A stretch of DNA of 24,000 nt, from NCBI GenBank assembly GCA_031395015.1, contig JANNUH010000006.1, positions 13,082-37,081 of the forward strand, in the 5' to 3' direction. This stretch comes from Desulfobacterales bacterium (GTDB lineage Bacteria > Desulfobacterota > Desulfobacteria > Desulfobacterales > Desulfobacteraceae). Shown here piece by piece: positions 6,589 through 21,102 of the stretch (the first letter of the stretch is position 1; each line of letters opens with the position of its first letter). Both the position numbers and the translations under genes were made by a program. The notes under the pieces are model-generated. The model was not told where the DNA came from. It ran no database searches and saw only the letters and a list, made by a program, of their open reading frames with translations.

Positions 6589-6660
6589 TCAGGGTTTAAA
6601 AGGCAATGTCGCCGGCTTTTTATTTGCTTGAATATTGGAAAATATGGACTGGAGTGCCCT

Positions 6661-7932
6661 ATGAAGATTTTGATTGCCGAAGATGATTATGTTTCAAGAC
6701 TTCTTGTGAAAAAAGCGGTCGAGAAAATCGGCCATGAAGTCATTGAGGCGGAAAACGGAAAGCTTGCCTGGCAATTATTTCTGGACCAGGACCCGGACAT
6801 GGTCATTTCCGACTGGATGATGCCGGAGATGGACGGAATCACCCTTTGCAAAAAGATTCGGTCTTCCGGGAAAAAAACCTATTCCTATATTATCCTGTTG
6901 ACGGCAAAGGACAGGATGACCGATCTTGTGGAAGTGTTTGACGCAGGGGCCGATGATTATATTATCAAGCCCTTTAACCCCGATGAATTGCGCTCACGGA
7001 TCAAGACCGGGGAAAGGATCATCCAACTGGAAGGCAGGCATTATCAATTGCAGGAAGAATTGACCCTCCGGAACAGCAAACTGGACGCAACACTCAAGGA
7101 ATTAAAGACAACCCAGGGCCGAATCCTTCAATCCGAGAAAATGGCTGCCGTTGGCCGGCTTGCCGCGGGTATGGCCCATGAGATCAATAACCCCATCGGA
7201 TTCATCGGCAGCAATCTGGATGCCTTGAAAGACTATATGGGCCATTTGGATGAACTTCTGTCCCGTTACCAGAAATTGTGTAGATTATTGATGGCCGCTC
7301 CGGAGGATAGTCTGAGTGCGGAAATAAAAAATGAAGTCAACGCCATCATACAATTTGAAGAACGGATTGAAATCGACTATCTTAAAAAAGATATTCCTGA
7401 ATTGCTCCATGACTGCAAGGAGGGAACCGAAAGGGTCGGAAAAATAGTTTCAGATCTGAAAAATTTTGCCCATCCGGGCAATGACAGGCAGATGCTGGTG
7501 GATATCAATAAGGGCCTTGAGTCTACCCTGAATATGGTTTGCAGTGAATTGAAATCCAAAGTCACCGTGACCCGTGAGTTCGGGGATATCCCCATGGTTG
7601 AGGGATTTCCCCAGAAATTGAACCAGGTATTCATGAATATCCTCGTCAATGCAGCCCAGGCCATAACGGAAAAGGGGGAAATCAGGATTGAGACAAAAAA
7701 AGAAGGGGATAATGTCATTGTTTCTATTTCAGATACCGGGTGCGGGATTGAGGAAGAACATCTTTCAAAGATATTCGACCCGTTTTTCACGACCAAGGAG
7801 ATTGGCAAGGGAACCGGTCTCGGCATGAACATCGCCTATAATATTATTGAAGAGCACAGGGGAAAAATCAGCATTCAAAGCACAGTGGGCAAGGGCACAA
7901 TATTTACCGTGAGTCTGCCGGGAAAATGTTAA
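6661..7932 (+). CDS. Receiver-histidine kinase (REC - coiled coil - HisKA - HATPase_c), no recognisable sensor domain
   Basis: The track ORF starts at TTG 6628. ATG 6661 (MKILIAEDD) with GGAG at 6651-6654 is preferred. The receiver is canonical: EDD, acceptor D in [14 protein letters not shown] in ILLTAKD, K in IIKPF. H-box [13 protein letters not shown]; N-box NILVNAAQA; G-boxes SDTGCGI and GKGTGLGM. Converges on the FapA-like gene with a 5-bp gap. Confidence 0.9.
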
Positions 7933-7937
7933 TAATT

Positions 7938-10379
7938 TCAGAAATTGCTGATCTGCATTTCGTAAAAAAGCATGCCGTTCAAGTTTTTTTCAACTTCTTT
8001 AATGCGGCATCGTAAGGCTGAATTGGAAAGGGTAAGCGAGGTATTTGGAGAAAAAATCCGGGTCTCTGATTCAGCCTTTCTCCCGATTTTGACTTCCGCA
8101 AGGGCCTCTGTCCTGCCGGAAAATTCGATCAGTAGCTTTTTTTCATCGGACAGGATTTGGCTATGGGCTTCAAATTCTTTGATCCGGCTGCTTTTCCGGG
8201 AAATTTCAGAGACGATCTGATCCTGGCGGTCAAATCCCTTATTAATTTTTTCTTCGGCTTTTTTTGCATTGATCCGGATCTCCTTGATCGTATTGGCGAT
8301 TTTCTGGTATGCGGCCATATCCCTGGAAGCCTTCAGTTCGCTCAGTTTTTTTTCCAGATCTTTGAGGTCAAGCTGTGCCCGGTCCTGGATATAGGCATAT
8401 TTGGAAATCAACCCATGCAGATCCTGATCTTCTTTTTCAAGTTTTTCAACCTCGGTTTTGAGTCCCAGGATTTCATTATCGTCGGTCATCAGCAGGGAAT
8501 CGATTCTTTCCGTTAACAGGCGGGTGTGATTATCCACACCCACCGTCAGGGTGGAGGGTTTTGAATTGGGACTTCCGATATTGCCGGCACGGATACCCAT
8601 TTTTGCAGAAATTTTAGAATTGAGGATGGAACCTCTTTCATTGATGCAGGCCCCGCTTAAATAAATTATCGAGTCAATGATTTCCTTTTGAACAATGAGG
8701 TCGCCAAAGGCGTTTATTTTTGAATTGTGAATATATTTGGCCTGAATCGATCCTTTGACCTTAATCAGCTCGGCATCAACAATGCCGAAGGAGACATTCA
8801 GATCTCCTGAAATATCAACTTCCGCACCATGAATTTCTTTGGCTGTCAATGAGGCGCATTTGACCTTGAATCCTCGTTTAACCGCGCCATCAATAATCAC
8901 ATTGCCGTTGAAATTGACATTGCCGGTTTCAAATCCGAGATCCCCTTTGATCTGAAATTCCGCGCAGACAGAGACAGTTCCAAGGGCATCCAGATGGGGT
9001 TGCCCTGATGCTGCGGCATAAATCCTTGCCCCGTCTTCAGACAACCGTGTCCCAATGCCCGATGAAAAAGCAAGATCAACCGCCTCTTCCACCGGGATTT
9101 TTTTCCCGAATACGTCAATCCCGTAGGCCCCCGGTTCCGGGTGAATTTTGGTGGCAAGTAAAGCCCCGTCTTTGATATAGGGGATCTCTCCCCGGTCCTT
9201 GAAATCAATGCTGCCGTCCTCGTTCACTTTGCCTGCATGAAGAAAACGGGTTGGGAAATAATAGCAGATATCGGCATTTTTTGGATATTTCGGCTCTCTT
9301 GCCTTTGCAACGACAAAGGGTTCATCTCCCGGTATGGCCCTGAAAAGCCAGGATTCAATCTCATGATCCTCTTTAATCCCGGTGATGATTTTGTTTTTTT
9401 CAAGGAATTGCCGGACATGGGAAGGATTCAGCGAATGGGTATCCTTTGTTTTAATCTTCAAAAAGGCCTCGGAATTGTCTTCTGAAAGCCTGACCTCAAA
9501 AAAAACATCCTGAATGATTTCTTTTATTCTTCCCCGGCTCTGGGGTTCGGGCGGTTTATCTTTCAGAAGAAGGGCAAACAGGAGCACCAGGATCTTGTCC
9601 ATCAGCTCCTTGACTTCAGGGTTCAATAGGGATGGGTCAAGAAGGGTCCTGGATGAAACCGGGGTCAGGGTGATATCGGGTGATAAGGCCACGACTTCAA
9701 GGATCTGTTTGATTTCATTTTTTATGGTGAGAAATTGAGAGCCAAAGGCATCCGGAGAAAAATCAATATTTCTTTTGGTCAGGATATCTTTCAGCAGCAA
9801 TGGTTTATCTGCATAAAGAGAACCGCCTGCAGAGCGAATCCTGGATTCAAGAATCCGGATTTCTTTTTTCTTTTGTTCAAGCTGGGCCAGATTCAGGGCA
9901 TCTTTTTTCTTTAAGCTGCTTGCCATCTCAAACAATTGCCTGTTCTGGTGCTGGGTCACCCGTTTAAAATGATTCTGTTTTTGGACCATATCATACTGCC
10001 GGCAGCACTGGTCCACCTGATATAAAAGATCCGGATCATCAAAGGGAAGGGTGAGGCAGGCGTGTATCCCGGCCAGATTGACGGCATTGACAAGGGTTTC
10101 GAGTTCAGCCGCATCGGCAATCAGAATTCTTTGCGTGTTGGGCGCAATCTCCCTTGCCTTTTTCAGGATCTCATCCCCTTTCATTTCCGGCATCATATAG
10201 TTCGAGATGATCAGCGTGTAAGGGACCGGCTTTGAAGCCTCAAGGGCTTCAAGGGCATCGGAAGAGATTGAAAAGCATTCCACCCCGTATCCTTCGGCGG
10301 ATAAGACGGATTTCATCCTGTTTTTCAAGGTGGTGGTGGATTCAACGATAAGAATTTTATGGGAAGTGTCGTTTAAAAT
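7938..10379 (-). CDS. FapA-family (DUF342) protein with an N-terminal degenerate (pseudo-)receiver domain and a C-terminal coiled coil; 5' boundary uncertain
   Basis: The 796-aa track ORF starts at TTG 10328. The DUF342/FapA beta-helix signature is clear: FETGNVNFNGNVIIDGAVKRGFKVKCASLTAKEIHGAEVDISGDLNV...SKISAKMGIRAGNIGSPNSKPSTLTVGVD. A long heptad-rich tail follows. The N-terminus is receiver-like, but its beta-1 strand (HKILIVESTTT) lies upstream of the first canonical start. I therefore extend to ATT 10379, which has AAGGA (10392-10388) 8 nt upstream. Stop TGA at 7938-7940. Confidence 0.8.
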   Translation of the reverse strand: MLNDTSHKILIVESTTTLKNRMKSVLSAEGYGVECFSISSDALEALEASKPVPYTLIISNYMMPEMKGDEILKKAREIAPNTQRILIADAAELETLVNAVNLAGIHACLTLPFDDPDLLYQVDQCCRQYDMVQKQNHFKRVTQHQNRQLFEMASSLKKKDALNLAQLEQKKKEIRILESRIRSAGGSLYADKPLLLKDILTKRNIDFSPDAFGSQFLTIKNEIKQILEVVALSPDITLTPVSSRTLLDPSLLNPEVKELMDKILVLLFALLLKDKPPEPQSRGRIKEIIQDVFFEVRLSEDNSEAFLKIKTKDTHSLNPSHVRQFLEKNKIITGIKEDHEIESWLFRAIPGDEPFVVAKAREPKYPKNADICYYFPTRFLHAGKVNEDGSIDFKDRGEIPYIKDGALLATKIHPEPGAYGIDVFGKKIPVEEAVDLAFSSGIGTRLSEDGARIYAAASGQPHLDALGTVSVCAEFQIKGDLGFETGNVNFNGNVIIDGAVKRGFKVKCASLTAKEIHGAEVDISGDLNVSFGIVDAELIKVKGSIQAKYIHNSKINAFGDLIVQKEIIDSIIYLSGACINERGSILNSKISAKMGIRAGNIGSPNSKPSTLTVGVDNHTRLLTERIDSLLMTDDNEILGLKTEVEKLEKEDQDLHGLISKYAYIQDRAQLDLKDLEKKLSELKASRDMAAYQKIANTIKEIRINAKKAEEKINKGFDRQDQIVSEISRKSSRIKEFEAHSQILSDEKKLLIEFSGRTEALAEVKIGRKAESETRIFSPNTSLTLSNSALRCRIKEVEKNLNGMLFYEMQISNF

Positions 10380-10391
10380 GGCTTTTATCCT

Positions 10392-11129
10392 TTATCTGTT
10401 CAGGTCTGATGAATCAGTTGGTTGCGGCATCATAAACCCGTATTGAGTGGAGATTTCCCGGAATTGTTCAAAGAGTTCGGCAATGATGGCCGCATAAAGC
10501 GAATTAAGCCTTCCCTTTTCCGTCATATTTTTTTGTTTCAAAAGGGCTTGTATTTCATTGATATAATTTTTGTTTTCAAACCCTTTTTCAAGGACGGCAT
10601 TCAAGTCGGTGATCTTTTGATCTTTATGAAGAAGGGCCTTCTGGTGAATTTCCGTACTCTTTTTAAGGTCAATATTGAGCTTATATAATTTTGCATTCTG
10701 TTCTTTGGCCAGGGCAAACAGCCTATGGCTTTCCATGATGAGTTCATACTGCCCAAGCCCGGCTTTGACGGATTCGACCAGAACTTTATTATCCCATGGT
10801 TTTGAAATATATCGGTGGATGGAGCCTTTATTGACCGATTCGGTCACTGCATCCGCATCTGCATAACCAGTGATGAGAAACCGGATGGTGTCGGGTGAGA
10901 TTTCCTTTGCCTTTTGAAGAAAAACAGAGCCCATCATTTCCGGCATCCGCTGATCCGAAAGAATCATGGAAAAAGGATGAGATGCTTTTTCCATGCAGTC
11001 AAGGGCTTCTCTGCCCGACGACACATAGACGTATTTCACACCCATCCCCCGCATCAGGCGGCCCAGTGCTTTGCCGATCTGTTCTTCATCATCCACAATC
11101 AATACGGTGTGGTCAAAGGGTTCCGACAT
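10392..11129 (-). CDS. Response regulator: canonical receiver plus a C-terminal region of about 110 aa, coiled-coil-like, with no recognised output domain
   Basis: The track ORF starts at TTG 11156. ATG 11129 (MSEPFDHTVLIVDDEE) is preferred because GGAGG lies 6 nt upstream. Receiver residues are intact: DD, acceptor D in MILSDQRMPEMMG, T in FLITGY, K in YISKPW. The C-terminal part (LAKEQNAKLYKLNIDLKKSTEIHQKALLHKDQKITDLNAVLEK...) is heptad-like, with no HTH or enzymatic motif that I recognise. Confidence 0.9.
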   Translation of the reverse strand: MSEPFDHTVLIVDDEEQIGKALGRLMRGMGVKYVYVSSGREALDCMEKASHPFSMILSDQRMPEMMGSVFLQKAKEISPDTIRFLITGYADADAVTESVNKGSIHRYISKPWDNKVLVESVKAGLGQYELIMESHRLFALAKEQNAKLYKLNIDLKKSTEIHQKALLHKDQKITDLNAVLEKGFENKNYINEIQALLKQKNMTEKGRLNSLYAAIIAELFEQFREISTQYGFMMPQPTDSSDLNR

Positions 11130-11152
11130 ATTCAGCCTCCAAAAGCCTTGCC

Positions 11153-12292
11153 TCAAACCGGTTCATGATCCAGCGTCTCCCGGATTTTTACGGCCAGCTC
11201 TTTTCTGGAAAAGGGTTTTGAAACAAAATGGACATCCTCCGGCAGCAGCCCCCGTTGAGCAATGATATCAGCCGTATAGCCGGACATGAACAGTATTTTA
11301 AGATCAGGATACAGGGCTTTCAGCTTTTTGGCCAGGTCCGGGCCGGTCATTTCCGGCATGATCACATCCGTCAGCACCAGATCGATTCCGCCGATATGGG
11401 TTTGGGCCAGGTTCATGGCCTGGCCCGGGGTCGCCGCCTCCAGCGCTTCATAGTCCAGCCCCTCCAGCATTCTCTTGACGAGATTCAGAATGGGGACATC
11501 ATCCTCAATGATCAGCACGGTTTCATGATGTCCTCTGGGTATTTCCGTTTCATCGGGCAGTTTCGATTGTTGGGGGTCTCCTGCATGACGGGGCAGGTAA
11601 ATTCTGAAAGTCGTCCCTTTTCCAGGCTCGCTGTAAACATTGATGAAGCCGTCGTTCTGCTTGACGATGCCGTACACTGTGGCCAAGCCTAAGCCGGTCC
11701 CCTGACCCAGGTCCTTGGTGGTGAAAAAGGGTTCAAAAATGTGGTCAAGGGTTTGCCTGTCCATGCCGCAGCCGGTGTCGCTCACCGCCAGCAATACAAA
11801 ATCGCCGGGAACATAGCCGGGATGGGCTGCGCAATAGGACCCATCAAAAATCACATTATCTGTCTCCAGGGTAACCTCCCCGACACCGGCAATGGCATCC
11901 CTTGCGTTGACGCAGAGATTGGCCAGGATCTGATCCATCTGGGAAGGGTCTATTTTGACTGGCCCAAGGCCTGACCTTGGCCGCCAGGTCAGATGAATAT
12001 CCTCCCCAATAAGGCGCCGAAGCATTTTCAGCATGGATTCCACGGTCTGGTTAAGGTCGAGCACCTGGGGGCTGACGGTCTGTTTTCTGGCAAAGGCCAG
12101 TAATTGCCGGGTGATGTCGACAGATCGCTGGGCAGCTTTGAGAACCTGCTGGAGATCATCGTGAACCGTCCCGGCCGGGTCTATTCTGTCTATGACCAGT
12201 TGGGTATAGCTCAGAATAATGGTGAGCATATTGTTGAAATCATGGGCCACCCCGCCGGCCAGCCGCCCTACGGATTCCATTTTCTGGGCCTG
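11153..12292. repeat. Direct repeat copy 1 (1140 bp) = 3' part of HK1 encoding HisKA-HATPase_c-REC
   Basis: Collinear with 17949-19088 at a constant offset of 6796 nt, so there is no net indel. It includes a 90-nt perfectly identical run (12060-12149 = 18856-18945). Similarity starts at the stop codon, is weaker over the last 8 codons, and ends just upstream of [14 protein letters not shown]. Confidence 0.9.
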
Positions 12293-13078
12293 ATGAAGCT
12301 GGGCCTGCAACAGAGTCTGTTCAGCTTCCGCCTGCTTACGCTCAGTGATGTCGCTGACGATGTGGACCGCGCCGGAAAGATGCTTGTCTGCATCCAGGAT
12401 GGGATCCACCGTCACCTTAAACCATCGATCGTCGGCCTGCAATTCCATACTTTCGCGCTTCAGGGTCTTGCGCATCCGCAGGATCGGGCATTCAAGGATC
12501 GGCGCCTGGGTGCCATGGACGATCTCCCAGCAGTGTTTGCCTATCATTTCATCCGTTGCCCGTTGAAATATCCGCTCCGCTCCCCGGTTGGAACGTACCA
12601 CGCGCTGGTCGGCGTCGAGAATCCAGACAGCGTCTGCCACTGAGTTGAAAGTCAGTTGCCACTCCCGTGCCAGTTGCTCATTTTCCTCCAATAGGAATTT
12701 GAGGCGTAGAAATGCGTTGATGGTGGCCACCAGGATTTTCGGGTACACCGGCTGGGTCAGATATCCGTCTGCGCCTTGCTCCAGGCCTGTCACCCGGTCG
12801 TCGTTGCTCATGAACACGGCGGACAGGTGCACGACGGGAATGGCGGATAGTCGTGGGTTGGCCCTGATCTGCTTACAAACCTCAATGCCGCTGATGTCGG
12901 GCAGTCGGACATCGAGCAGAATCAGGTCCGGGCACTCTTCGGCCAGGCGCAGTGCCTCCCGGCCAGTGGCGGCTTCACGTACTTCAAACCCTGCCTGCTG
13001 AAGGATGCGGGTGGTGGTATAGCGCATGGCCTCGGTGTCATCCACGTTCAGGATGACCGGCTTTCGGCTATTTTTCAT
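11153..13078 (-). CDS. Hybrid histidine kinase REC - PAS - HisKA - HATPase_c - REC (called HK1 in the findings)
   Basis: The track ORF (11153..13309) carries a 77-codon Arg/Pro-rich extension that overlaps the upstream gene. The real start is most likely ATG 13078 (MKNSRKPVILNVDD), with GAGGGGG 6 nt upstream. N-terminal REC: acceptor D56 (codon 12911-12913), and Gln in place of the conserved Lys (YLTQP, codon 12752-12754). One PAS domain. H-box [14 protein letters not shown]; G-boxes SDTGCGM and GQGTGLGL. C-terminal REC: [28 protein letters not shown]. Confidence 0.9.
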   Translation of the reverse strand: MKNSRKPVILNVDDTEAMRYTTTRILQQAGFEVREAATGREALRLAEECPDLILLDVRLPDISGIEVCKQIRANPRLSAIPVVHLSAVFMSNDDRVTGLEQGADGYLTQPVYPKILVATINAFLRLKFLLEENEQLAREWQLTFNSVADAVWILDADQRVVRSNRGAERIFQRATDEMIGKHCWEIVHGTQAPILECPILRMRKTLKRESMELQADDRWFKVTVDPILDADKHLSGAVHIVSDITERKQAEAEQTLLQAQLHQAQKMESVGRLAGGVAHDFNNMLTIILSYTQLVIDRIDPAGTVHDDLQQVLKAAQRSVDITRQLLAFARKQTVSPQVLDLNQTVESMLKMLRRLIGEDIHLTWRPRSGLGPVKIDPSQMDQILANLCVNARDAIAGVGEVTLETDNVIFDGSYCAAHPGYVPGDFVLLAVSDTGCGMDRQTLDHIFEPFFTTKDLGQGTGLGLATVYGIVKQNDGFINVYSEPGKGTTFRIYLPRHAGDPQQSKLPDETEIPRGHHETVLIIEDDVPILNLVKRMLEGLDYEALEAATPGQAMNLAQTHIGGIDLVLTDVIMPEMTGPDLAKKLKALYPDLKILFMSGYTADIIAQRGLLPEDVHFVSKPFSRKELAVKIRETLDHEPV

Positions 13079-15218
13079 GGTTGGCCCCCTCTTTTTTTTG
13101 CCTGTATAGTTCAGTAATCTTACACAATGCCTCCTGCACTGCTTCCAGGGCCTTTTCCCGGTTGGGTGCCGCTTTGGACAGAACCGCCAGGGCTTGTTGG
13201 TTGAGGAAGCGGCGCTCGGTTTCGTCAAGTGTTTTGGAGGTGCTGATAATAACCGGGATCGCGCGCGTGGCCGGGTTGGCCTTGAGCCGTTGAAGGACTT
13301 CAAAACCATCCATGCCGGGCATGGTCAGGTCCAGGAAGATGACGTCCGGCTGCTCTGCTTCCGCCAGGATCAGGTCTGCCGTGCCATCGGAGGCTTCCAG
13401 GCTGGTGTAGCCGGTTCCGGCCAGATGACCCTTTAGAATATAACGGGCCACCTCTTCGTCGTCTATGATCAAGATTTTTTTCAGTGGTGCACGCCTTGCA
13501 AGGTCGCTCAATTTTCCCAATAGCCAATTCCGTTCAATGGGCTTCACACAATAATCCTCCGCTCCCAGAGAGAGGCCTTTGTCCTGCTCCTCCAGCAAAG
13601 AGGCAACAATGACGGGGATGTCCCTTGTGGCAGGGTTGGCTTTGATTTCAGTCAGGAATGACCATCCATCCTCATTCTCGTCGGGCATTAAGATATCCAG
13701 CACAATGGCCGTGGGTTTCATGCGCTGTAACGTCTGCCGGGCCTCACGGATGGATTGGGCCGGAAAAACCTTAAACCCGGAATCTTTCAGATATGATTGG
13801 TATACGAGCTGGGTGGCTGCATCGTCTTCGACCACGAGCACTGGATGGCGGGTGATATCACCGGGAGCGAGTGCCGCGACCTGTTCGTCTTTGGCCGGTG
13901 CATAGCGCACAGGGATGGTAATGGTAAAGGTGGCGCCTTCCCCCGGGCGGCTTTGCACAGTCACATGACCGCCCAGCAGTTCGGCCAGTTTACGGGAGAT
14001 GGGCAACCCCAGACCAGTGCCTTTGGGCTTGCCCTGTTGGGCGGTCTCCACCTGGGTGTATTCGTCAAAGATGCGTTCATGGTCTTCAGGTGCGATACCG
14101 ATGCCGGTATCGGCCACGGAAAATAGTACGGTCTGCCCATCGTCGCCCGGCCGGGCCGACACCCGGATCTCGCCCTGATGGGTAAACTTGATGGCGTTGG
14201 ACAAAAAGTTCCGCAGGATCTGGACCAGCTTGGCATCATCGGTGAATAGCGGCGGGAGGCTTGCCATGGACTCAAAGACCAGCTCAATCGACTTGTCTGC
14301 CAGGAGTGGTTTGAGAATGCCTCGCAGTCCGCTGAAAATCTCCTCTGCCATGAATTCGCGCGGCTTCACATTGACCTTGTTGGCCTCGATCTTGGCAAGG
14401 TCCAGCAGGTCGTTGATCTGCGCAGAAAAAGCATCGGCTGCCTGGTGGATGAAGGTCACCTGTTTTTCCTGTTCCAGGGTGAGGTCGCCGTCCGTTCGAT
14501 CCAACAGCAGTCGGGAGAGGGCCAGGATGGAATTGAGTGGGGTGCGGAATTCATGGCTCATATTGGATAGAAATCGGGATTTGGTCTGGTCGGCCGAGCG
14601 TAGCTGGGTGACTTTTTCATCCAATTCCGCATAGAGCGCCAGCACCCCTTGATTGGTATTCTCCAGTTCTTCCCGCTGGCTGCGCAGTTCATCCAGTGCG
14701 CGCAGGAGTTCCTGATTTTGCACGCGGACTTCCTCCAGCGGTGATTCGGCGTCTGTGGTCGCCAGTGACTCTGCAATGCGCATTAAGACGTCCGGCGTTA
14801 CTGCCGGGGCTGTCACCGGGAGGGTCTTGCCGATGGTCACCTCGGTCCCCTTACCGGGTTCGGTGTTGATACGGAACTGGTCCATCAGCCGCCGGGTGCC
14901 GACAATGCCCCTGCCCATTCCGGTGGGTGAGGTGTAGCGCCCTTCCAGGATGGCCTGGATATCTTTGATCCCCGGCCCCTGGTCGCGCACCGTGATGGTA
15001 AAGACCTGAGCTGGAGTGGTACCCTCTATCATGAATTCAACCTCGCCGTCCCTGCCATACTGGTAGGCATTGCGGGCAATTTCCGATACGGCGGTACTGA
15101 TGCGTGTCTGATCGTTTCGGTCAAATCCCAGCAGGTCGGCAATCCGCCGGGCCCGCTGCCGGGCATAGACCACGTCCTGTTCGTAGCGGATTTCAACGCG
15201 GGTAATCGATGTTTTCAT
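13068..15218 (-). CDS. Soluble hybrid histidine kinase: N-terminal RsbT/RsbW-like GHKL module - coiled coil - HisKA - HATPase_c - REC - REC
   Basis: 716-aa ORF. ATG 15218 has AAGGAG 6 nt upstream and an ATGA overlap with the phosphatase stop. Residues 1 to about 133 (VSEIARN, RDQGPGI, GMGRGI, PGKGTEV) align with the stand-alone RsbT in this window. H-box MSHEFRTPLNSI (His222, codon 14553-14555); N-box NFLSNAIKFT; G-boxes ADTGIGI and GTGLGL. Two receivers: VLVVEDD...IVLDILMP...CVKP and ILIIDDE...IFLDLTMPGMDG...VIISTS. I saw no TM, PAS or GAF domain. Confidence 0.9.
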   Translation of the reverse strand: MKTSITRVEIRYEQDVVYARQRARRIADLLGFDRNDQTRISTAVSEIARNAYQYGRDGEVEFMIEGTTPAQVFTITVRDQGPGIKDIQAILEGRYTSPTGMGRGIVGTRRLMDQFRINTEPGKGTEVTIGKTLPVTAPAVTPDVLMRIAESLATTDAESPLEEVRVQNQELLRALDELRSQREELENTNQGVLALYAELDEKVTQLRSADQTKSRFLSNMSHEFRTPLNSILALSRLLLDRTDGDLTLEQEKQVTFIHQAADAFSAQINDLLDLAKIEANKVNVKPREFMAEEIFSGLRGILKPLLADKSIELVFESMASLPPLFTDDAKLVQILRNFLSNAIKFTHQGEIRVSARPGDDGQTVLFSVADTGIGIAPEDHERIFDEYTQVETAQQGKPKGTGLGLPISRKLAELLGGHVTVQSRPGEGATFTITIPVRYAPAKDEQVAALAPGDITRHPVLVVEDDAATQLVYQSYLKDSGFKVFPAQSIREARQTLQRMKPTAIVLDILMPDENEDGWSFLTEIKANPATRDIPVIVASLLEEQDKGLSLGAEDYCVKPIERNWLLGKLSDLARRAPLKKILIIDDEEVARYILKGHLAGTGYTSLEASDGTADLILAEAEQPDVIFLDLTMPGMDGFEVLQRLKANPATRAIPVIISTSKTLDETERRFLNQQALAVLSKAAPNREKALEAVQEALCKITELYRQKKEGANHEK

Positions 15219-16243
15219 GGCGTACTCCTTGATTCTTTGATGACCACCACCAGGCTGTCATCCCGCACCCGGTTGTAGTCTCGGAACAGCACCCCGGCGA
15301 TGAGGGCAGGGTGCCGCCCGCGCAACCCCGGGGAGTCATCCAGGTCCCAGCGGCTGGTCAGTCCGTCCGAATTCAAGACGAGCAGTCCGTTTTCCGGCCA
15401 TGGATAGGTGAATTCCATAATCTTGCGCGCTTCAAGGCCTACGGTGCCGTTGTGTGAGACCATGCTGCGGACGGCATCATTGGAAAAAATTCGCCCGGAG
15501 ATGTTGCCCACACCGGCATAGTGCACCAGTCGCCGGTCCCAAAGCACCTCGGTTACGGCCACTGCTGCCCCGCGGGTGCTGCGCAGGGCGGCGTGCATTC
15601 GTTCAATCATCTCCACGGGACCGGTATGGGGATGATTCTCAAAGATGTCAACTGCCGCGGCAGAGGCTTCGGCGGCGTACTGGCCGTGGCCCAGCCCGTC
15701 GGCCAGCATGATCAGTGCCCGCTCGCGGGTCTGATGCAAGGCCCAGGCGTCGCCGCAGGATTCTTCCGTCGGTATAGGCAGACACACCGCCCCCACTTCC
15801 ATCCACACCTCCGGCGGGTGCGGTGGCTCGAAGGCGGGCAGCGGGCGGCGCCAGATGCGGCTCAGTACTGCAGTGCCATGACCGGGCCGGGAATAGATGT
15901 CAAACAGGGCCGATAGTCTTTGGATTGCGCCCAGACCGCTCCCAGGACTACCCGTTGTGGAGTGGCCGTTACGCAGGCTCTCTCCTATGTTACGAATTCC
16001 AGGTCCCTGGTCCAGAGCGAGCATTTCGATGCCGGGCACCTTGTCAATCCCGAGAGCGTTCAGAATGAGGTCGCCGCCTCCGGCGTGTTTCAACAGGTTG
16101 GTGGCCATTTCAGACACCACAATGGAAACATGCTCGACGCTGACCGCATCGAGTCCCAGCTCCCTGCCCATGGACGCAGCTCGCCGCCGGGCTTCGCCCA
16201 CCTGACTCGATTCTTCCACCCGCAGCAGTGTCGTTTTTTTCAT
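15215..16243 (-). CDS. PP2C/SpoIIE-family protein phosphatase with an N-terminal RsbT/RsbW-like GHKL module (RsbX-position gene of the stressosome cassette)
   Basis: The track ORF starts at GTG 16249. ATG 16243 gives an ATGA overlap with the rsbT stop, and either start is possible. N-terminal module motifs: VSEMATN, LDQGPGI, GSGLG, PGHGT. C-terminal SpoIIE/PP2C motifs: GDAWAL, LADGLGHGQYAAEAS, VLNSDGLTS. Confidence 0.9.
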   Translation of the reverse strand: MKKTTLLRVEESSQVGEARRRAASMGRELGLDAVSVEHVSIVVSEMATNLLKHAGGGDLILNALGIDKVPGIEMLALDQGPGIRNIGESLRNGHSTTGSPGSGLGAIQRLSALFDIYSRPGHGTAVLSRIWRRPLPAFEPPHPPEVWMEVGAVCLPIPTEESCGDAWALHQTRERALIMLADGLGHGQYAAEASAAAVDIFENHPHTGPVEMIERMHAALRSTRGAAVAVTEVLWDRRLVHYAGVGNISGRIFSNDAVRSMVSHNGTVGLEARKIMEFTYPWPENGLLVLNSDGLTSRWDLDDSPGLRGRHPALIAGVLFRDYNRVRDDSLVVVIKESRSTP

Positions 16244-16644
16244 ATCCACCTTGTGATCGTGATGCGTGTGCCCTTACCGGGCAAAGACCAGATGTCGAAT
16301 TCGTTCACCAGCCGTTTGGACCCGCTCAGTCCCAGGCCTAATCCGTCGCCTGTGGTATAACCGTCTTTCAGTGCCAGATCAAGGTCAGGGATGCCTGGCC
16401 CGTGATCTTCGAAAACAAGCCGAATACCCCGGCGGGTATTGTTCTCCAGCTCTTCCAGGCGCGCACCCCCGCCGCCGCCATAGGAAATGGTGTTGCGGCC
16501 CAGCTCGCTTGCTGCCGTGACCATCTTGGTCTGGTCCACCAGGCTGAACTTCATCTCCACCATCCAGATGCGCACGGCCTTCCGGACATTCACGAGGTCA
16601 TCTGAATTGCGCAGAATGACGTATTCACTCCGGATAATATTCAT
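16240..16644 (-). CDS. rsbT: RsbT-like serine/threonine protein kinase (anti-sigma regulatory factor family, GHKL fold)
   Basis: 134-aa ORF with ATG at 16644. N-box ASELGRN; EDHGPGI; GLGLGL; PGKGTRI. It sits directly after two STAS genes and overlaps rsbS by 20 nt. Confidence 0.85.
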   Translation of the reverse strand: MNIIRSEYVILRNSDDLVNVRKAVRIWMVEMKFSLVDQTKMVTAASELGRNTISYGGGGGARLEELENNTRRGIRLVFEDHGPGIPDLDLALKDGYTTGDGLGLGLSGSKRLVNEFDIWSLPGKGTRITITRWI

Positions 16645-17017
16645 GGCGCACCCCCGCCTGGGTTTCGATCAGGGAAGTGAGCATCGCCATACCTTTGTCC
16701 ACGGTGAGTGCGGTGCGCACGTTTTCCAGCGAAAGTCCCAGTTCCACGATGGTGATGGCCACTGCCGGGCGCATGCCTACCACCACGGTTTCGGCACCCA
16801 GCGTCCGGGTCATGGCGGCAATATTGCCAAGCATGCGGCCGATGAAAGAATCCACCATTTCCAGAGAGGAAATGTCGATGAGTACTCCTTTTGCCCGGTC
16901 CTTCACCACCCGGCCGGTCAGATCATCCTGCAGGGCCATGGCCAGGCGATCGTGCATATCCACCTGGATGGTTATCAGCAGGAAATGACCCATTTTGAGA
17001 ATTGGAATTCTATCCAT
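16625..17017 (-). CDS. rsbS: RsbS-like single-STAS-domain stressosome scaffold protein
   Basis: 130-aa ORF. IPILKMGHFLLITIQVDMHD...GVLIDISSLEMVDSFIGRMLGNIA...GMRPAVAITIVELG follows the B. subtilis RsbS pattern. This includes the phosphorylatable Ser in the (I/V)DSF motif (Ser57, codon 16847-16849). GGAGAGGAG lies upstream of the ATG. Confidence 0.9.
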   Translation of the reverse strand: MDRIPILKMGHFLLITIQVDMHDRLAMALQDDLTGRVVKDRAKGVLIDISSLEMVDSFIGRMLGNIAAMTRTLGAETVVVGMRPAVAITIVELGLSLENVRTALTVDKGMAMLTSLIETQAGVRHEYYPE

Positions 17018-17032
17018 GATGTTCTCCTCTCC

Positions 17033-17902
17033 TCATGCCTGGGCCTGCTTGCGTATGACCGAAATACCGGCCTGTTTAAAGGCGTAGGCCAGCGCATCGG
17101 CCAGCGAGGCCTTGGTGACGATGTCGTTGAAGGCTACACCCAGATGCACCATGGTCTGGGCGATCTGGGGGCGGATGCCGCTGATGATGCACTCGGCGCC
17201 CATGAGCCGGGCCGCGGCAACGGTCTTGAGCAGGTGCTGGGCCACCAGCGTATCCACCGCCGGTACCCCGGTGATGTCAATAATGGCAATCCCGCTGCCG
17301 GTTTCTACGATGGCTTGAAGGAGGCTTTCCATGACAATCTGGGTGCGGGAGCTGTCCAGCGTGCCGATCAACGGCAGGGCCAGAATGCCGTCCCACAGCT
17401 TCACGACCGGAGTGGAGAGTTCGAGCATTTCCTCTTGCTGGCGTTTGATGATTGTCTCGCGGCTCTTTTGAAAGGTTTCGACGGTGAACAGGCCCAGGCT
17501 GTCAAGCAGGACGGTTACCGTCCACATATCGCCCGATAGTTCTGAGACATCCTTGTAGCCCATTTCCTGCAGGCGGTTGAAAAGAGGCTGTTTCAGAGAA
17601 AAGACAAAGGTGGCGGTCTCGGTTGGCGTAAAATTCATGGCGGCCCGGGTCCGGGAAATTCCGGATAGAAAATCCCGCACGGGCGACCATTCCGGGGCCG
17701 TGATGTCCGTCAGGTTGCCACCGGCAACCGCCGGGACTAAAAGCGCCATAAACTCAGTCGATTCACGGCGCAGATCGGCTTCGGACAACAGGTCTTTGCG
17801 CAGGGTCAACGCATTCACCTGTACCTTAAGCCATCTGTCGACAATTTCCTTTTCAAAGGTGGTGAAGATCTCCTGGATTTTGCTTGTGTGGGTTGCAGTC
17901 AT
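17033..17902 (-). CDS. rsbR: RsbR-like stressosome sensor protein (RsbRD_N-type non-haem N-terminal domain + C-terminal STAS)
   Basis: 289-aa ORF with AGGAGG 7 nt upstream of ATG 17902. The C-terminal STAS region ELSTPVVKLWDGILALPLIGTLDSSRTQ...IIDITGVPAVDTLVAQ retains both Thr positions equivalent to the RsbRA phosphosites (Thr181, Thr218). The N-terminal approx. 150 aa contain a single His (His5, near the extreme N-terminus), so a haem-globin sensor seems unlikely. Confidence 0.85.
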   Translation of the reverse strand: MTATHTSKIQEIFTTFEKEIVDRWLKVQVNALTLRKDLLSEADLRRESTEFMALLVPAVAGGNLTDITAPEWSPVRDFLSGISRTRAAMNFTPTETATFVFSLKQPLFNRLQEMGYKDVSELSGDMWTVTVLLDSLGLFTVETFQKSRETIIKRQQEEMLELSTPVVKLWDGILALPLIGTLDSSRTQIVMESLLQAIVETGSGIAIIDITGVPAVDTLVAQHLLKTVAAARLMGAECIISGIRPQIAQTMVHLGVAFNDIVTKASLADALAYAFKQAGISVIRKQAQA

Positions 17903-17948
17903 TGGGGCACCTCCTGTTTTATGGTATCAATAGAATCTCAATATTATT

Positions 17949-19088
17949 TCAGCCATTATTATGATTCAGCACTTCCCGGATTTTTACGGCCAGCTCTTTT
18001 ATGGAAAAGGGTTTTGAAATGAAATTTGTATCAGCAGCCAGAAGTCCCCGCTGGGCAATGATATCGGCCGTATACCCGGACATGAACAGTATTTTAAGAT
18101 CAGGATACAGGGCTTTCAGTTTTTTGGCCAGATCCGGGCCGGTCATTTCCGGCATGATCACATCCGTCAGCACCAGATCGATTCCGCCGGTATGGGTTTG
18201 GGCCAGGTCCATGGCCTGGCCCGCGGTCGCCGCCTCCAGCGCTTCATAGTTCAGTCCCTCCAGCATTCTTTTGGCAAGATTCAGGATGGGAACATCATCC
18301 TCAATGATCAGCACGGTTTCATGATGTCCTGTGGGTATTTCAGTTTCATCCGGCAGTTCAGCCCGTCCGGGGTCTCCTGCATGACGGGGCAGGTAAATTC
18401 TGAAAGTCGTCCCTTTTCCAGGCTCGCTGTAAACATTGATGAACCCGTCGTTCTGCTTGATGATGCCGTACACCATGGCCAGACCCAGGCCGGTCCCCTG
18501 GCCCAGGCCCTTGGTGGTGAAAAAGGGTTCAAAGATATGGTCAAGGATTTGCCTGTCCATGCCGCAGCCGGTGTCGCTCACCGCCAGCAATACAAAATCA
18601 CCTGGAACAAAGCCGGGATGGACTGCGCAATAGGCTCCATCAAGGGTCACATGATCCGTCTCAAGGGTGAGCGTCCCGATACCGGCAATGGCATCCCTTG
18701 CGTTGACGCACAGATTGGCCAGAATCTGATCCATCTGGGAAGGGTCTATTTTGACCGGCCAAAGGCCTGACCCCGGCCGCCAGGTTAAATGAATATCCTC
18801 CCCCATAAGCCGCCGGAGCATTTTCAGCATGTATTCCACGGTCTGGTTCAAGTCCAGCACCTGGGGGCTGACGGTCTGTTTTCTGGCAAAGGCCAGTAAT
18901 TGCCGGGTGATGTCGACAGATCGCTGGGCAGCTTTGAGAACCTGCGAAAGATCATCGTGAATCGTCCCGGCCGGGTCTATTCTGTCCATGACCAGTTGCG
19001 TATAGCTCAGAATAATAGTGAGCATATTGTTGAAATCATGGGCCACCCCGCCGGCCAGCCGACCCACGGATTCCATTTTCTGGGCCTG
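17949..19088. repeat. Direct repeat copy 2 (1140 bp) = 3' part of HK2 encoding HisKA-HATPase_c-REC
   Basis: See copy 1. My hand alignment of the two encoded segments gives 41 differences in about 378 residues (about 89% identity). The plus-strand shadow ORFs 12104..12643 and 18900..19472 in the track are near-identical too, as expected for a nucleotide-level repeat. Confidence 0.9.
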
Positions 19089-20642
19089 CGCAAACTGGGC
19101 CTCCAGTTGTATATGGGCCGTGACATCCCGTTTCACGGCCACAAAATTGACAATGCGGCCTTCAGGGTCGAAAACCGGGGATATGGTGGCATCTTCGGTA
19201 AAGAGGGACCCATCCTTTCGTTTGTTGAGGATGCGGCCTTTAAAGGTATTCCCTGCCAGCAGGGTTTTCCAGAGATTTTCATAAAAGGCCGGATCCTGTT
19301 TGCCGCTTTTCAGGATCCGGGGGGTCTGCCCGCATATTTCTTCTTTTTTGTATCCGGAAATCCTTTCAAAAGCCGGGTTGACATATTGAATGGTCCCGGA
19401 AGGGTCTGTGATGATAATGCTGTCATCGCTCTGCTCAATGGCGGCCAGGAGTCTTTCCCTATCGGCCTCTGATTGTTTTTTCAGGGTGATGTCCTCAATA
19501 ATGGCAATATACCCCGTCAGTCTGCCCTCATTATCAAAGATGCTACTGGTGGACAGATTGATGAAAATCGAGGCCCCGTCTTTTTTCCGGCGTTCCAGTT
19601 CAATATGGGTGAGAGTTTGTTTTTGGGTTACCCGTTCTTTCAGTATTTTCGATTCTTCCCGGGTCTCTTCAGACACAAAGGGCGGCAGTTTTCCCAGGAC
19701 TTCAGCTTCTGTCCAGCCGAAAATAGTTTCAGCCGCTTTGTTCCAGCTTTGAATGAGACCGTCCGGGGAATAGCGGATAAGGGCCAGAGGCGAGGCGCTA
19801 ACCATTGTGCTATACTGAGTTTCGCTGGTATGAAGATTCTGTTCGGCCCGCTTTCTCTCACTGATATCCTGAAACGAGCCCTGGACCTTGACGATTTTAC
19901 CGGTTTCATTCCTCACCGCCACCCCGTTGGTTCTTACCCAGACCCGTTTTCCCGACCGGGTGAGGATTTCCAGTTCTTCATCATAGGGGATACCGTTTTT
20001 TGCACAATTTTTAAACATTCTTGTAATCCGGTCCCGCCATTCGGGCGCATAAAAATTGATGGCGTCTTTTACAAGGGGTGAATAACCCCTGGGCATTTCA
20101 TGGATATCGGCTACCGTATCAGACCAGCGGGCCGTATATTCCGGGATATCAACGCTCCAGCCGCCGAATTTTGCCGTTTCACCGGCGATGCGGAGAAGGG
20201 TATAGTTATCCTCCAGGTCCTGTTCCGCCTGTTTGCCCGTTTTTTTCTGCTTTGCTTCATCCAGTGCCCGCTTTACAGCAAAAGGAAGTCGTTCCAGCCG
20301 GTCTTTCAGGATATAATCCACGGCCCCCTGTCGAATCAGATCAATGGCCGTTTCTTCCCCAATGGAGCCTGAGACAACGATGAAAGGCGCATCCGGGGCT
20401 ATTTCCAGGGATTTTTTCAGGGCGGCAAAGGCATCATATCCAGGCAATCTGAAATCAGCCAGAATCATGTCATATTTCTGTTTTTGCAGGTATGACACAA
20501 ATTCCGCTTCATTTTCAGCGTGATCCATTTTCAATTCATATCCTGCGGCGATCAGGGATTCACGGATGATTTCAAAGTCCCTGAAGGAGTCTTCAAGGGA
20601 CAGGACGGTTAATTGTTGATCGGAATTGATTCTGGTTTTCAT
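17949..20642 (-). CDS. Hybrid histidine kinase REC - PAS - PAS - PAS - HisKA - HATPase_c - REC (called HK2 in the findings)
   Basis: The track ORF starts at ATG 20672. ATG 20642 ([18 protein letters not shown]) is preferred because AAGGAGGGG lies directly upstream and it avoids a 20-nt overlap. N-terminal REC: [19 protein letters not shown]. Three PAS domains, each ending in an ERKRAE or LKKQSE type linker. The transmitter plus C-terminal REC is about 89% identical to that of HK1. Confidence 0.9.
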
Positions 20643-20652
20643 AATCCCCTCC

Positions 20653-21090
20653 TTATTCAGGCGGCAGTTCATTGATCAATGCCCAGAACATCCCTAAATT
20701 TTTTATGGCATCGATGAATTCCTTGAAATTGACAGGCTTTACCACATAGGCATTGGTGCCCAGAGCATAAGATTTTTTCAGGTCCGGAGCTTCACGGGAA
20801 GAGGTGAGCATCACCACCGGGATGGTCTTTAATTTAGGGTCACTGCGAACAGCCTTGAGGACCTCCAGGCCATCCATGCGCGGCAGCTTGATGTCCAGCA
20901 GCATGACGGCCGGGTTTTCCGGTTTTCGCCCTGCGTATGGGCCTTCACAGCGCAGATAGTCCATGGCTGCAACCCCATCGTTGACCACAATGACCTGGTT
21001 TGCCAGCTTATATTCGTTCAATGCCTCCAGAGTCAGTTCGACATCCATGGGATTATCTTCTACGAGCAGAATGGTTTTTAAAGCGTTCAT
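20653..21090 (-). CDS. Single-domain CheY-like response regulator (Rcp1-like type usually paired with the upstream kinase)
   Basis: 145-aa ORF with AGGAG 5 nt upstream of ATG 21090. Motifs: ILLVEDNPMD, acceptor D in VMLLDIKLPRMDG, VVMLTSS, YVVKPV, and a C-terminal FW...PP tail. It lies 12 nt downstream of the 7TM kinase stop. Confidence 0.9.
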   Translation of the reverse strand: MNALKTILLVEDNPMDVELTLEALNEYKLANQVIVVNDGVAAMDYLRCEGPYAGRKPENPAVMLLDIKLPRMDGLEVLKAVRSDPKLKTIPVVMLTSSREAPDLKKSYALGTNAYVVKPVNFKEFIDAIKNLGMFWALINELPPE

Positions 21091-21102
21091 GGCAGCTCCT
21101 GA

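Follow-up and report, generated by a model that had tools for sequence, protein, structure and literature searches.

The window analysed here, that is, the whole 24,000-nucleotide (nt) stretch of contig JANNUH010000006.1 from a Desulfobacterales bacterium, encompasses on its minus strand a locus of an ordinary kind, one of very many copies of a six-gene cassette joining a stressosome to a two-component relay. The cassette consists of rsbR, rsbS, rsbT, a gene in which an rsbT-like module is fused to an rsbX-type phosphatase, a gene in which another rsbT-like module is fused to a histidine kinase (HK) with receiver (REC) domains, and a gene for a kinase that begins with a REC domain (REC-HK). 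This is an uncharacterised variant of stressosome wiring, undescribed within the literature searched; the names given to its genes in databases are already generic, the fused phosphatase, for example, being listed by NCBI as 'ATP-binding SpoIIE family protein phosphatase'. What was known before is that RsbR-RsbS-RsbT-RsbX (RSTX) modules lie beside two-component or c-di-GMP genes; what appears to be new is an RsbT paralogue in the place of the RsbU_N adaptor.

The stressosome core and its six-gene cassette

The gene for RsbR (17033..17902), which combines an RsbRD_N sensory domain with a C-terminal STAS domain, is followed after a gap of 15 nt by that for the single-STAS scaffold protein RsbS (16625..17017; Pfam and solved relatives in both cases). 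The latter overlaps by 20 nt the gene encoded directly after it, which specifies a stand-alone RsbT of 134 amino acids (aa), a GHKL Ser/Thr switch kinase (16240..16644; Pfam and RsbT profile). ATGA overlaps join rsbT to the gene for the 342-aa fused phosphatase (15215..16243, with the ATG at 16243; Pfam and predicted fold) and the phosphatase gene to the kinase gene, whose stop is overlapped by 11 nt by the start of the sixth gene (11153..13078), encoding a REC-PAS-HisKA-CA-REC hybrid kinase recognized by Pfam. This cassette recurs, with identical gene calls that include the sixth gene, in an independent metagenome assembly (Logan SRR20217207). A promoter/terminator scan yielded terminator-like sites at chance level, every one of them inside coding regions.

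An initial annotation of the window, made from the sequence alone, had described five tightly coupled minus-strand genes. The open reading frames and their junctions confirm these five, and the Pfam search upheld the identities of all five proteins, but the conserved unit runs past position 13068, where that description ended, to the sixth gene. We describe the cassette as a six-gene unit because the next gene starts with a REC domain in 61 of 68 related loci (in 53 of those together with a kinase core). As also stated in the initial annotation, neither a sigma factor nor a GGDEF domain was found in the 24-kb window, and an RsbV/RsbW pair was likewise not found; the combination of an RsbV/RsbW pair and sigB that defines a sigma-B partner-switching cascade is missing from these 24 kb.

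In RsbR, Pfam detects RsbRD_N (98 bits, 6e-28) and STAS (1e-13), and the best solved relative is RsbR of the Vibrio vulnificus stressosome (7o0i_B, E = 3e-35), aligned over the STAS domain and the linker. Ser184 (in LDS; 17351-17353) aligns with the first phosphothreonine, which in solved RsbR of the Listeria type belongs to an IDT motif, and Thr218 (17249-17251) is the equivalent of the second phosphosite; both residues are invariant in all 72 cassettes compared. The earlier claim that both Thr phosphosites are conserved therefore stands for Thr218, whereas in the alignment to solved RsbR the place assigned to Thr181 is taken by Ser184. V. vulnificus RsbR likewise has Ser at the first phosphosite (IDS), where Bacillus and Listeria have Thr. 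RsbS matches the Pfam STAS family as well as the solved RsbS proteins of B. subtilis (6jhk, E = 1e-29) and Listeria (6qcm, 3e-28), so that both STAS proteins fall into the families originally proposed for them. The conservation claimed for RsbS Ser57 (16847-16849) holds too: this residue aligns with Ser59 of B. subtilis and Ser56 of Listeria, a known phosphoserine, and is invariant in 70/70 cassettes.

By homology, RsbR and RsbS are predicted to make up a STAS core. In characterised systems, RsbR and RsbS assemble into a pseudo-icosahedral complex of ~1.8 MDa that sequesters RsbT. Together with RsbT and the RsbX-type phosphatase, the two proteins here would constitute a stressosome RsbRST(X) module with an apparently complete write/erase set, in which the state of the core would be written on RsbS Ser57 and RsbR Ser184/Thr218 by the RsbT-type kinase and erased by the RsbX-type PP2C.

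The cassette is one of the commonest stressosome configurations. Scanning one genome per species for the head of the kinase together with its linker, we found at least 589 loci/species genomes from more than 10 phyla, including Cyanobacteria, Acidobacteriota, Nitrospirota, Planctomycetota, Verrucomicrobiota, Deinococcota, Actinomycetota, Bacillota, Spirochaetota, and all proteobacterial classes; the head and linker match 412 clusters at 50% identity (E<=1e-30). In the survey of homologous gene neighbourhoods that the initial annotation had called for, rsbR, rsbS, rsbT, and the fused phosphatase gene precede the kinase gene in 64 of the 65 loci with enough flanking sequence, the sole exception being a 1,197-aa RsbR that starts outside the filter. 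Given this spread, and since the fused phosphatase by itself accounts for more than 5,000 clusters at 90% identity, the view of the cassette as a curiosity was not borne out. The same six genes are carried by megaplasmid MP1 of Deinococcus radiodurans R1 (locus L084; 25219-31023 in NC_000958), under six generic product names and adjoining an IS4 (ISDra1) transposase and a plasmid ParB gene, and plasmids of Phaeobacter inhibens harbour a five-gene variant with a HisKA_2/HWE kinase.

Three RsbT-family modules and the enzymes that carry them

The initial annotation had noticed the RsbT fold three times in a row, namely, as the stand-alone protein, as the N-terminal head of the phosphatase (aa 1-133, 15845-16243), and as that of the kinase (aa 1-132, 14823..15218), and this observation withstood comparison with Pfam, a canonical RsbT profile, and solved folds. 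With Pfam, the stand-alone RsbT is recognized by HATPase_c (42 bits) and falls just short of the 27.4-bit cut-off of HATPase_c_2 (27.3 bits), which both heads exceed (phosphatase aa 15-128, 38 bits; kinase aa 16-129, 64 bits). A search of the PDB returned no sequence of RsbT, and a model specific to RsbT is also missing from NCBIfam, where the best matches are SpoIIAB and RsbA, all under their cut-offs. The canonical profile was built from 10 source-named Bacillales RsbT proteins, retrieved with a B. subtilis sequence that is 99% identical to a real cluster. Against this profile, the stand-alone RsbT, the kinase head, and the phosphatase head of the window score 104, 110, and 69 bits, respectively, and the corresponding medians over 66 cassettes are 118, 99, and 69 bits; SpoIIAB against RsbT gives only ~21 bits.

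Both fused heads superimpose on SpoIIAB and RsbW with template modelling scores (TM) of about 0.8, specifically, 0.80 on SpoIIAB for the phosphatase head, and 0.78-0.81 on SpoIIAB and up to 0.84 on RsbW for the kinase head. The closest solved folds of the heads are thus kinases crystallised with their STAS partners (SpoIIAB-SpoIIAA and RsbW-RsbV). The N-termini of the heads are GHKL alpha/beta domains, and no RsbU_N match was obtained on any cassette protein (Pfam, E<=0.01). The N-terminal modules of the phosphatase and the kinase accordingly passed the profile and structure check, proposed with the initial annotation, as RsbT/RsbW-family GHKL domains.

When the modules of 66 cassettes were placed in one tree with canonical RsbT, each of the three kinds came out as monophyletic, with canonical RsbT clustering beside the stand-alone and kinase-head lineages. 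Across phyla, members of one kind share 61% identity in the case of the stand-alone protein, 56% for the kinase head, and 44% for the phosphatase head, compared to 24-36% between kinds; the stand-alone group shares 42% mean identity with RsbT of the Bacillus/Listeria type. Because within-kind identity across phyla exceeds that between kinds, the triplication is ancient rather than local, with the three modules representing separate paralogues, and a local duplication, under which neighbours within a cassette would not be more distant (24-36%) than orthologues in other phyla (44-61%), was rejected as the origin of the triple module. The N-box E...N, the G1 motif DxGPG, and the Gly-rich G2 motif are retained in each kind across the 66 cassettes (for the kinase head, the invariant residues are E46/N50 in the N-box, D79/G81/G83 in G1, and G100/G102/G104 in G2). 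Judging from this pattern, the ATP-binding motifs appear to be under purifying selection in all three monophyletic groups, and the modules are predicted to be ATP-competent members of the RsbT family. The possibility that the heads are degenerate remnants was discarded in view of the conserved motifs and the clean orthologous groups. Such conservation would be expected if STAS proteins were bound or phosphorylated in a nucleotide-dependent way; the family to which the fused heads belong, and their gene context, lead us to infer that they would bind or phosphorylate STAS partners.

In the fused phosphatase, the second half (aa 148-342, 15218-15802) contains the SpoIIE domain of Pfam (aa 176-307) and matches Moorella MtX (3zt9, 1.5e-13) and RsbX (3w40, 1.3e-12) in sequence; its predicted fold superimposes on MtX with a TM of 0.90 (1.7 Å root-mean-square deviation) and on B. 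subtilis RsbX with a TM of 0.81. The PP2C half is therefore assigned, by sequence and predicted structure, to the RsbX type, relative to which the N-terminal domain is an addition. Sequence, Pfam, and fold thus agree with the PP2C/SpoIIE phosphatase with an RsbT-like N-terminus that had been read from the DNA. Among the metal-binding Asp/His residues of the PP2C, D165 is conserved in 69 of 71 cassettes and the others in all 71. The AlphaFold2 (AF2) model of the phosphatase has a predicted local distance difference test score (pLDDT) of 88.9 and a predicted TM-score (pTM) of 0.90. The head and the PP2C half are connected by a short low-confidence loop, with no coiled coil, and the pTM value implies that, in the model, they are packed in a fixed arrangement.

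The kinase has a different design. Following its head, Pfam identifies HisKA (aa 213-279), HATPase_c (aa 327-437, 153 bits), and two REC domains, REC1 (aa 459-575, with Asp508) and REC2 (aa 582-687, with Asp630), which together make up the output part (13068..14582); both REC domains keep the DD...D...T/S...K pattern, and the protein is predicted to be a HisKA-class hybrid histidine kinase. No PAS, GAF or RsbU_N domain (Pfam) and no transmembrane segment was detected in it, and its maximum hydropathy is 0.90 versus 2.45 for a seven-transmembrane (7TM) kinase from the same window that served as a control. These results agree with the original description of a soluble HK-REC-REC protein with an RsbT-like head and no other candidate input domain. 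That description also had a coiled coil run from the head to the phosphoacceptor His222 (14553-14555), and the AF2 model of residues 1-300 (pLDDT 84.5) bears this out: the transmitter region (14502..14795) consists of a helix at aa 142-154 and a continuous helix of 80 residues at aa 160-239, which is unbroken through His222, and in which hydrophobic residues occupy 69% of the a/d positions in the best heptad register, compared to 36% of positions overall.

The linker carries two recognizable motifs, QNQEL at its junction with the head and LE(D/N)TN(R/Q)GV.ALYAELDEK, LEDTNRGVVALYAELDEK, ahead of the H-box. Q167, N168, E170, L171, and the segment T188-L199 are invariant, and His222 is invariant in 76/76 cassettes. 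The linker of the window kinase (14600-14700, aa ~175-205) is 7 aa, or one heptad, shorter than the family consensus, the missing heptad falling between the ELR..RQEEL and LEDTN motifs; a change by one heptad preserves the helical register.

Across the related proteins, the head with its QNQEL junction is also found ahead of HisKA, HisKA_2, PAS-HisKA_2, GGDEF, PAS-GGDEF-HD, and GAF-HisKA outputs, and thus looks like a portable unit. At one locus (L082, 3417-4541), the head and QNQEL are fused to GGDEF, behind rsbR-rsbS-rsbT and the gene for a headless 260-aa PP2C. Another protein (P0242, 832 aa) has an unusual architecture in which the RsbT-like head is internal (aa 248-469) and comes after an extra N-terminal HisKA.

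Coupling of the stressosome to its outputs

The established device for coupling a stressosome to its output is RsbU_N (PF08673-type), a four-helix N-terminal domain that binds free RsbT; NreB-like kinases are among the outputs of this class. RsbU and Moorella MtG have it, as do some kinases of proteobacteria (PMC12143880). Most proteins encoded downstream in stressosome loci lack RsbU_N, and how these are coupled is an open question (PMC9237108). We suggest, with a probability of about 0.45, that the fused heads of the cassette read the phosphorylation state of the STAS proteins directly, docking both the phosphatase and the kinase on the stressosome. Under this scenario, the RsbT paralogues on the two enzymes would be ATP-dependent STAS-binding heads that stand in for the RsbU_N adaptor of Bacillus and Moorella. 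The phosphatase head would tether the PP2C to its phospho-STAS substrates, and the kinase head would dock the soluble kinase on RsbS/RsbR or let it go, depending on STAS phosphorylation. The change would travel down the 80-residue coiled-coil helix to His222 and set its autophosphorylation, from which phosphoryl groups would be transferred to the REC domains of the kinase itself and to the REC domain of the next hybrid kinase.

Direct docking on STAS proteins appears to be the most economical reading because members of this GHKL family bind their STAS partners in a nucleotide-dependent manner. In a mirror-tree analysis, divergence of the kinase head follows that of the stressosome proteins (r 0.51-0.59) more closely than that of the kinase core in the same protein (r 0.30), which lends weak support to docking. 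Also in its favour are the membership of all three modules in the RsbT family, the solved relatives crystallised with STAS partners, the retained ATP-binding motifs, the invariant or nearly invariant phosphosites and catalytic residues, the conserved gene order, the lack of RsbU_N, the portability of the head, the fixed arrangement in the phosphatase model, and the stress-sensitive mutants of the probable Deinococcus orthologues. Several points weigh against it. Partial correlations (0.20, 0.20, and 0.17) do not discriminate between the STAS proteins and RsbT as the head's partner. Docking also leaves the stoichiometry on the stressosome surface unexplained, as one set of STAS sites would be contested by three clients. 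The mapping of the Deinococcus locus tags discussed below is inferred from consecutive accessions. Finally, an apparent fusion of RsbT, head, and PP2C fits a pairing of RsbT with the head at least as well. This chain, apparently of 473 aa, is encoded at 7001-8422 of locus L088 (ENA ERZ25039462, a 4.66-Mb contig), and the kinase that follows it has no RsbT-like head.

The main rival of docking is such a pairing. Once set free by the stressosome, RsbT would form heterodimers with the heads of the kinase and the phosphatase, so that the head plays the part of RsbU_N, the coiled coil is rearranged, and the kinase is switched on. Partner-switch kinases of the GHKL type are known to be dimeric. All three modules are paralogues that share one fold, and SpoIIAB and RsbW, their closest folds, are homodimers; furthermore, the apparently natural RsbT-head-PP2C chain of L088 is a hint, of the Rosetta-stone type, that RsbT and the head act together, and RsbT distances correlate best with those of the phosphatase (partial r of 0.34 with the PP2C). 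Nevertheless, a passive receptor for RsbT has no need for the ATP-binding residues that are conserved in both heads. According to Kang et al. (1998), as cited in PMC4976288, activation of RsbU by RsbT is independent of kinase activity. RsbT has been tried against a downstream kinase in a single published experiment, a two-hybrid assay of VvRsbT and VvD1 in V. vulnificus, which was negative, with transient phosphorylation suggested as the means of coupling (PMC9237108), although the architecture of VvD1 is not established here. On balance, we consider pairing unlikely, but a serious contender. The partner switching among three RsbT-fold modules put forward in the initial annotation thus survives as one of at least two live options, for which the evidence is no better than for docking.

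It appears still less probable that the three modules divide the labour, each being an active Ser/Thr kinase with a target of its own among the three phosphosites or the relay proteins; the phosphatase would then be a bifunctional enzyme. None of the three groups has lost the N-box, G1, or G2, the three phosphosites are invariant, and PP2C and RsbW-like domains occur together in the solved Rv1364c (3ke6), a fold match. P. aeruginosa HsbR acts on HsbA as a kinase/phosphatase, and OsaC is a further precedent. In Bacillus, however, one RsbT phosphorylates all three sites, and a division of labour is compatible with docking, as well as with pairing, rather than exclusive of them. That the heads work independently of the stressosome, as sensors of the ATP/ADP energy state or as plain dimerisation domains, with the linkage reflecting co-regulation only, is highly improbable: GHKL domains do bind nucleotide and the kinase has no other input domain, but the near-universal linkage to rsbRST (64-65 of 65 loci, from diverse phyla) together with translational coupling, the specific affinity of the heads to the RsbT family in the profile comparison, and the co-divergence of the kinase head with stressosome proteins all argue against it.

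Comparison with characterised systems shows where the cassette departs from them. With the B. subtilis/Listeria RsbRST-RsbU-RsbX pathway, it shares the phosphosites of the STAS core, the RsbT kinase, and a reset phosphatase of the RsbX type, but it lacks RsbU, RsbV, RsbW, sigma-B, and the RsbU_N adaptor, and it is the phosphatase and the output histidine kinase that carry RsbT-like heads. Polypeptides in which an RsbW/RsbT-type kinase is joined to a PP2C and has a STAS partner are exemplified by M. tuberculosis Rv1364c (3ke6), Streptomyces coelicolor OsaC, and P. aeruginosa HsbR; these differ in domain order and in their extra PAS, GAF, REC, and STAS domains, and are encoded outside rsbRST cassettes. 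Moorella thermoacetica MtR-MtS-MtT-MtX-MtG and the RsbU_N kinases have in common with the cassette a non-sigma output, an N-terminal adaptor, and a coiled-coil linker (PMC12143880), as well as the PP2C fold, on which gene 4 superimposes through its phosphatase half (TM 0.90 to MtX, as given above); there, however, the adaptor is RsbU_N binding free RsbT, whereas here it is an RsbT paralogue, and MtX is headless.

In V. vulnificus, rsbRSTX-D1-D2 is likewise an RSTX module without sigma-B, co-transcribed with the genes for a histidine kinase (VvD1) and for one more signalling protein (PMC9237108; PMC10436020). The STAS domain of the window RsbR is most similar to VvRsbR (7o0i), including the Ser at the first phosphosite, but VvRsbR has a globin sensor in contrast to RsbRD_N here, and VvRsbX is described as a single-domain PP2C. 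The Vibrio papers and their supplements contain no domain detail for VvD1, and a VvD1 candidate retrieved from metagenome contigs with a published primer was a chance match on an unrelated glycosidase contig.

The D. radiodurans MP1 genes DR_A0005-A0010 share the six-gene architecture, but the kinase there has a single REC domain, and gene 6 lacks both the PAS domain and the C-terminal REC domain. Genes 5 and 6 are probably dr_A0009/dr_A0010, that is, dtrA/dtrB, because the protein accessions are consecutive and KEGG lists DR_A0009 as a two-component protein. Mutants in dtrA/dtrB are sensitive to heat, UV, and H2O2, and published work has regarded the pair as a normal two-component system, without connecting it to stressosome genes (PMC10778927). 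If this mapping holds, the Deinococcus cassette is the sole member with reported mutant phenotypes. Papers on Ramlibacter and on Nostoc hcyA-D proved unrelated.

RSTX modules beside two-component or c-di-GMP genes were reportedly already known from the work of Pané-Farré in 2005. They were surveyed by Heinz et al. (2022, PMC9237108), and in the clusters covered there RsbX is a single-domain PP2C. An RsbT paralogue on stressosome outputs is undescribed in the literature searched, which excluded Pané-Farré 2005 and Quin 2012. In keeping with the initial annotation, which knew of no experimental work on the kinase-fused architecture, we found no biochemical characterisation of it in the literature.

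Surroundings of the cassette and its significance

The cassette lies within a single tight array of 11 minus-strand signalling genes (7938-24000), separated by at most 63 nt or overlapping, that encode, in order, a 7TM-Cache-PAS-HK, a REC protein, a REC-PAS3-HK-REC, the five cassette proteins, the REC-PAS-HK-REC, a REC-coiled-coil protein, and a REC-FapA protein. There are six histidine kinases in the window, including a partial SBP-PAS-HK-REC (1-2274), and a seventh, a REC-HK, is encoded on the plus strand (6628-7932). The 254-aa REC-coiled-coil protein (10392..11156, minus strand), in which Pfam recognizes only the REC domain, and whose gene overlaps the sixth gene by 4 nt, is a possible local downstream partner; no match to its C-terminal part was found in 80 related loci, and it is not conserved with other cassettes. 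The gene at the end of the array (7938-10328, minus strand) encodes a REC domain followed by FapA_N and the FapA beta-solenoid of the flagellar assembly protein A family, and a FapA homologue lies nearby in only 1 of the 80 related loci. Among the related cassettes, there is no conserved histidine phosphotransfer (HPt) domain or effector response regulator.

Two hybrid kinases flanking the cassette share a direct repeat in their HisKA-CA-REC halves, which extends without gaps over 1145 bp at 91% identity. Copy 1 (11165..12309) lies in the sixth gene and copy 2 (17961..19105) in the REC-PAS3-HK-REC gene located upstream (17949-20672). Between them is a GC-rich block (54-62% GC, compared to 44-50% in the flanks), which suggests that the cassette was acquired and that a partial duplication or gene conversion at the repeat followed. 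Recombination between the copies would delete rsbRSTX together with the kinase gene.

Stressosomes occur in many phyla, and their signalling is understood only where RsbT binds RsbU_N. The cassette offers a concrete, testable alternative, namely, outputs that carry an RsbT paralogue of their own, which may explain signalling without sigma-B, and it is found in the tractable organisms Deinococcus radiodurans, Nostoc, Bradyrhizobium, Methylobacterium, Herbaspirillum, and Phaeobacter inhibens. We put forward tentatively, and with somewhat less confidence than docking itself, the broader idea that heads derived from RsbT paralogues are a general, hitherto unrecognised class of adaptors that couples most stressosomes lacking sigma-B to histidine kinases, diguanylate cyclases, and the reset phosphatase. 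If this is the case, a protein-docking GHKL domain would join the input modules of histidine kinases and GGDEF proteins, and the Deinococcus DtrA/DtrB 'two-component system' would have to be re-read as the output arm of a stressosome. The output enzymes would then be clients docked on a megadalton STAS core and released or switched by its phosphorylation state, which would answer how stressosomes signal without any target that bears RsbU_N.

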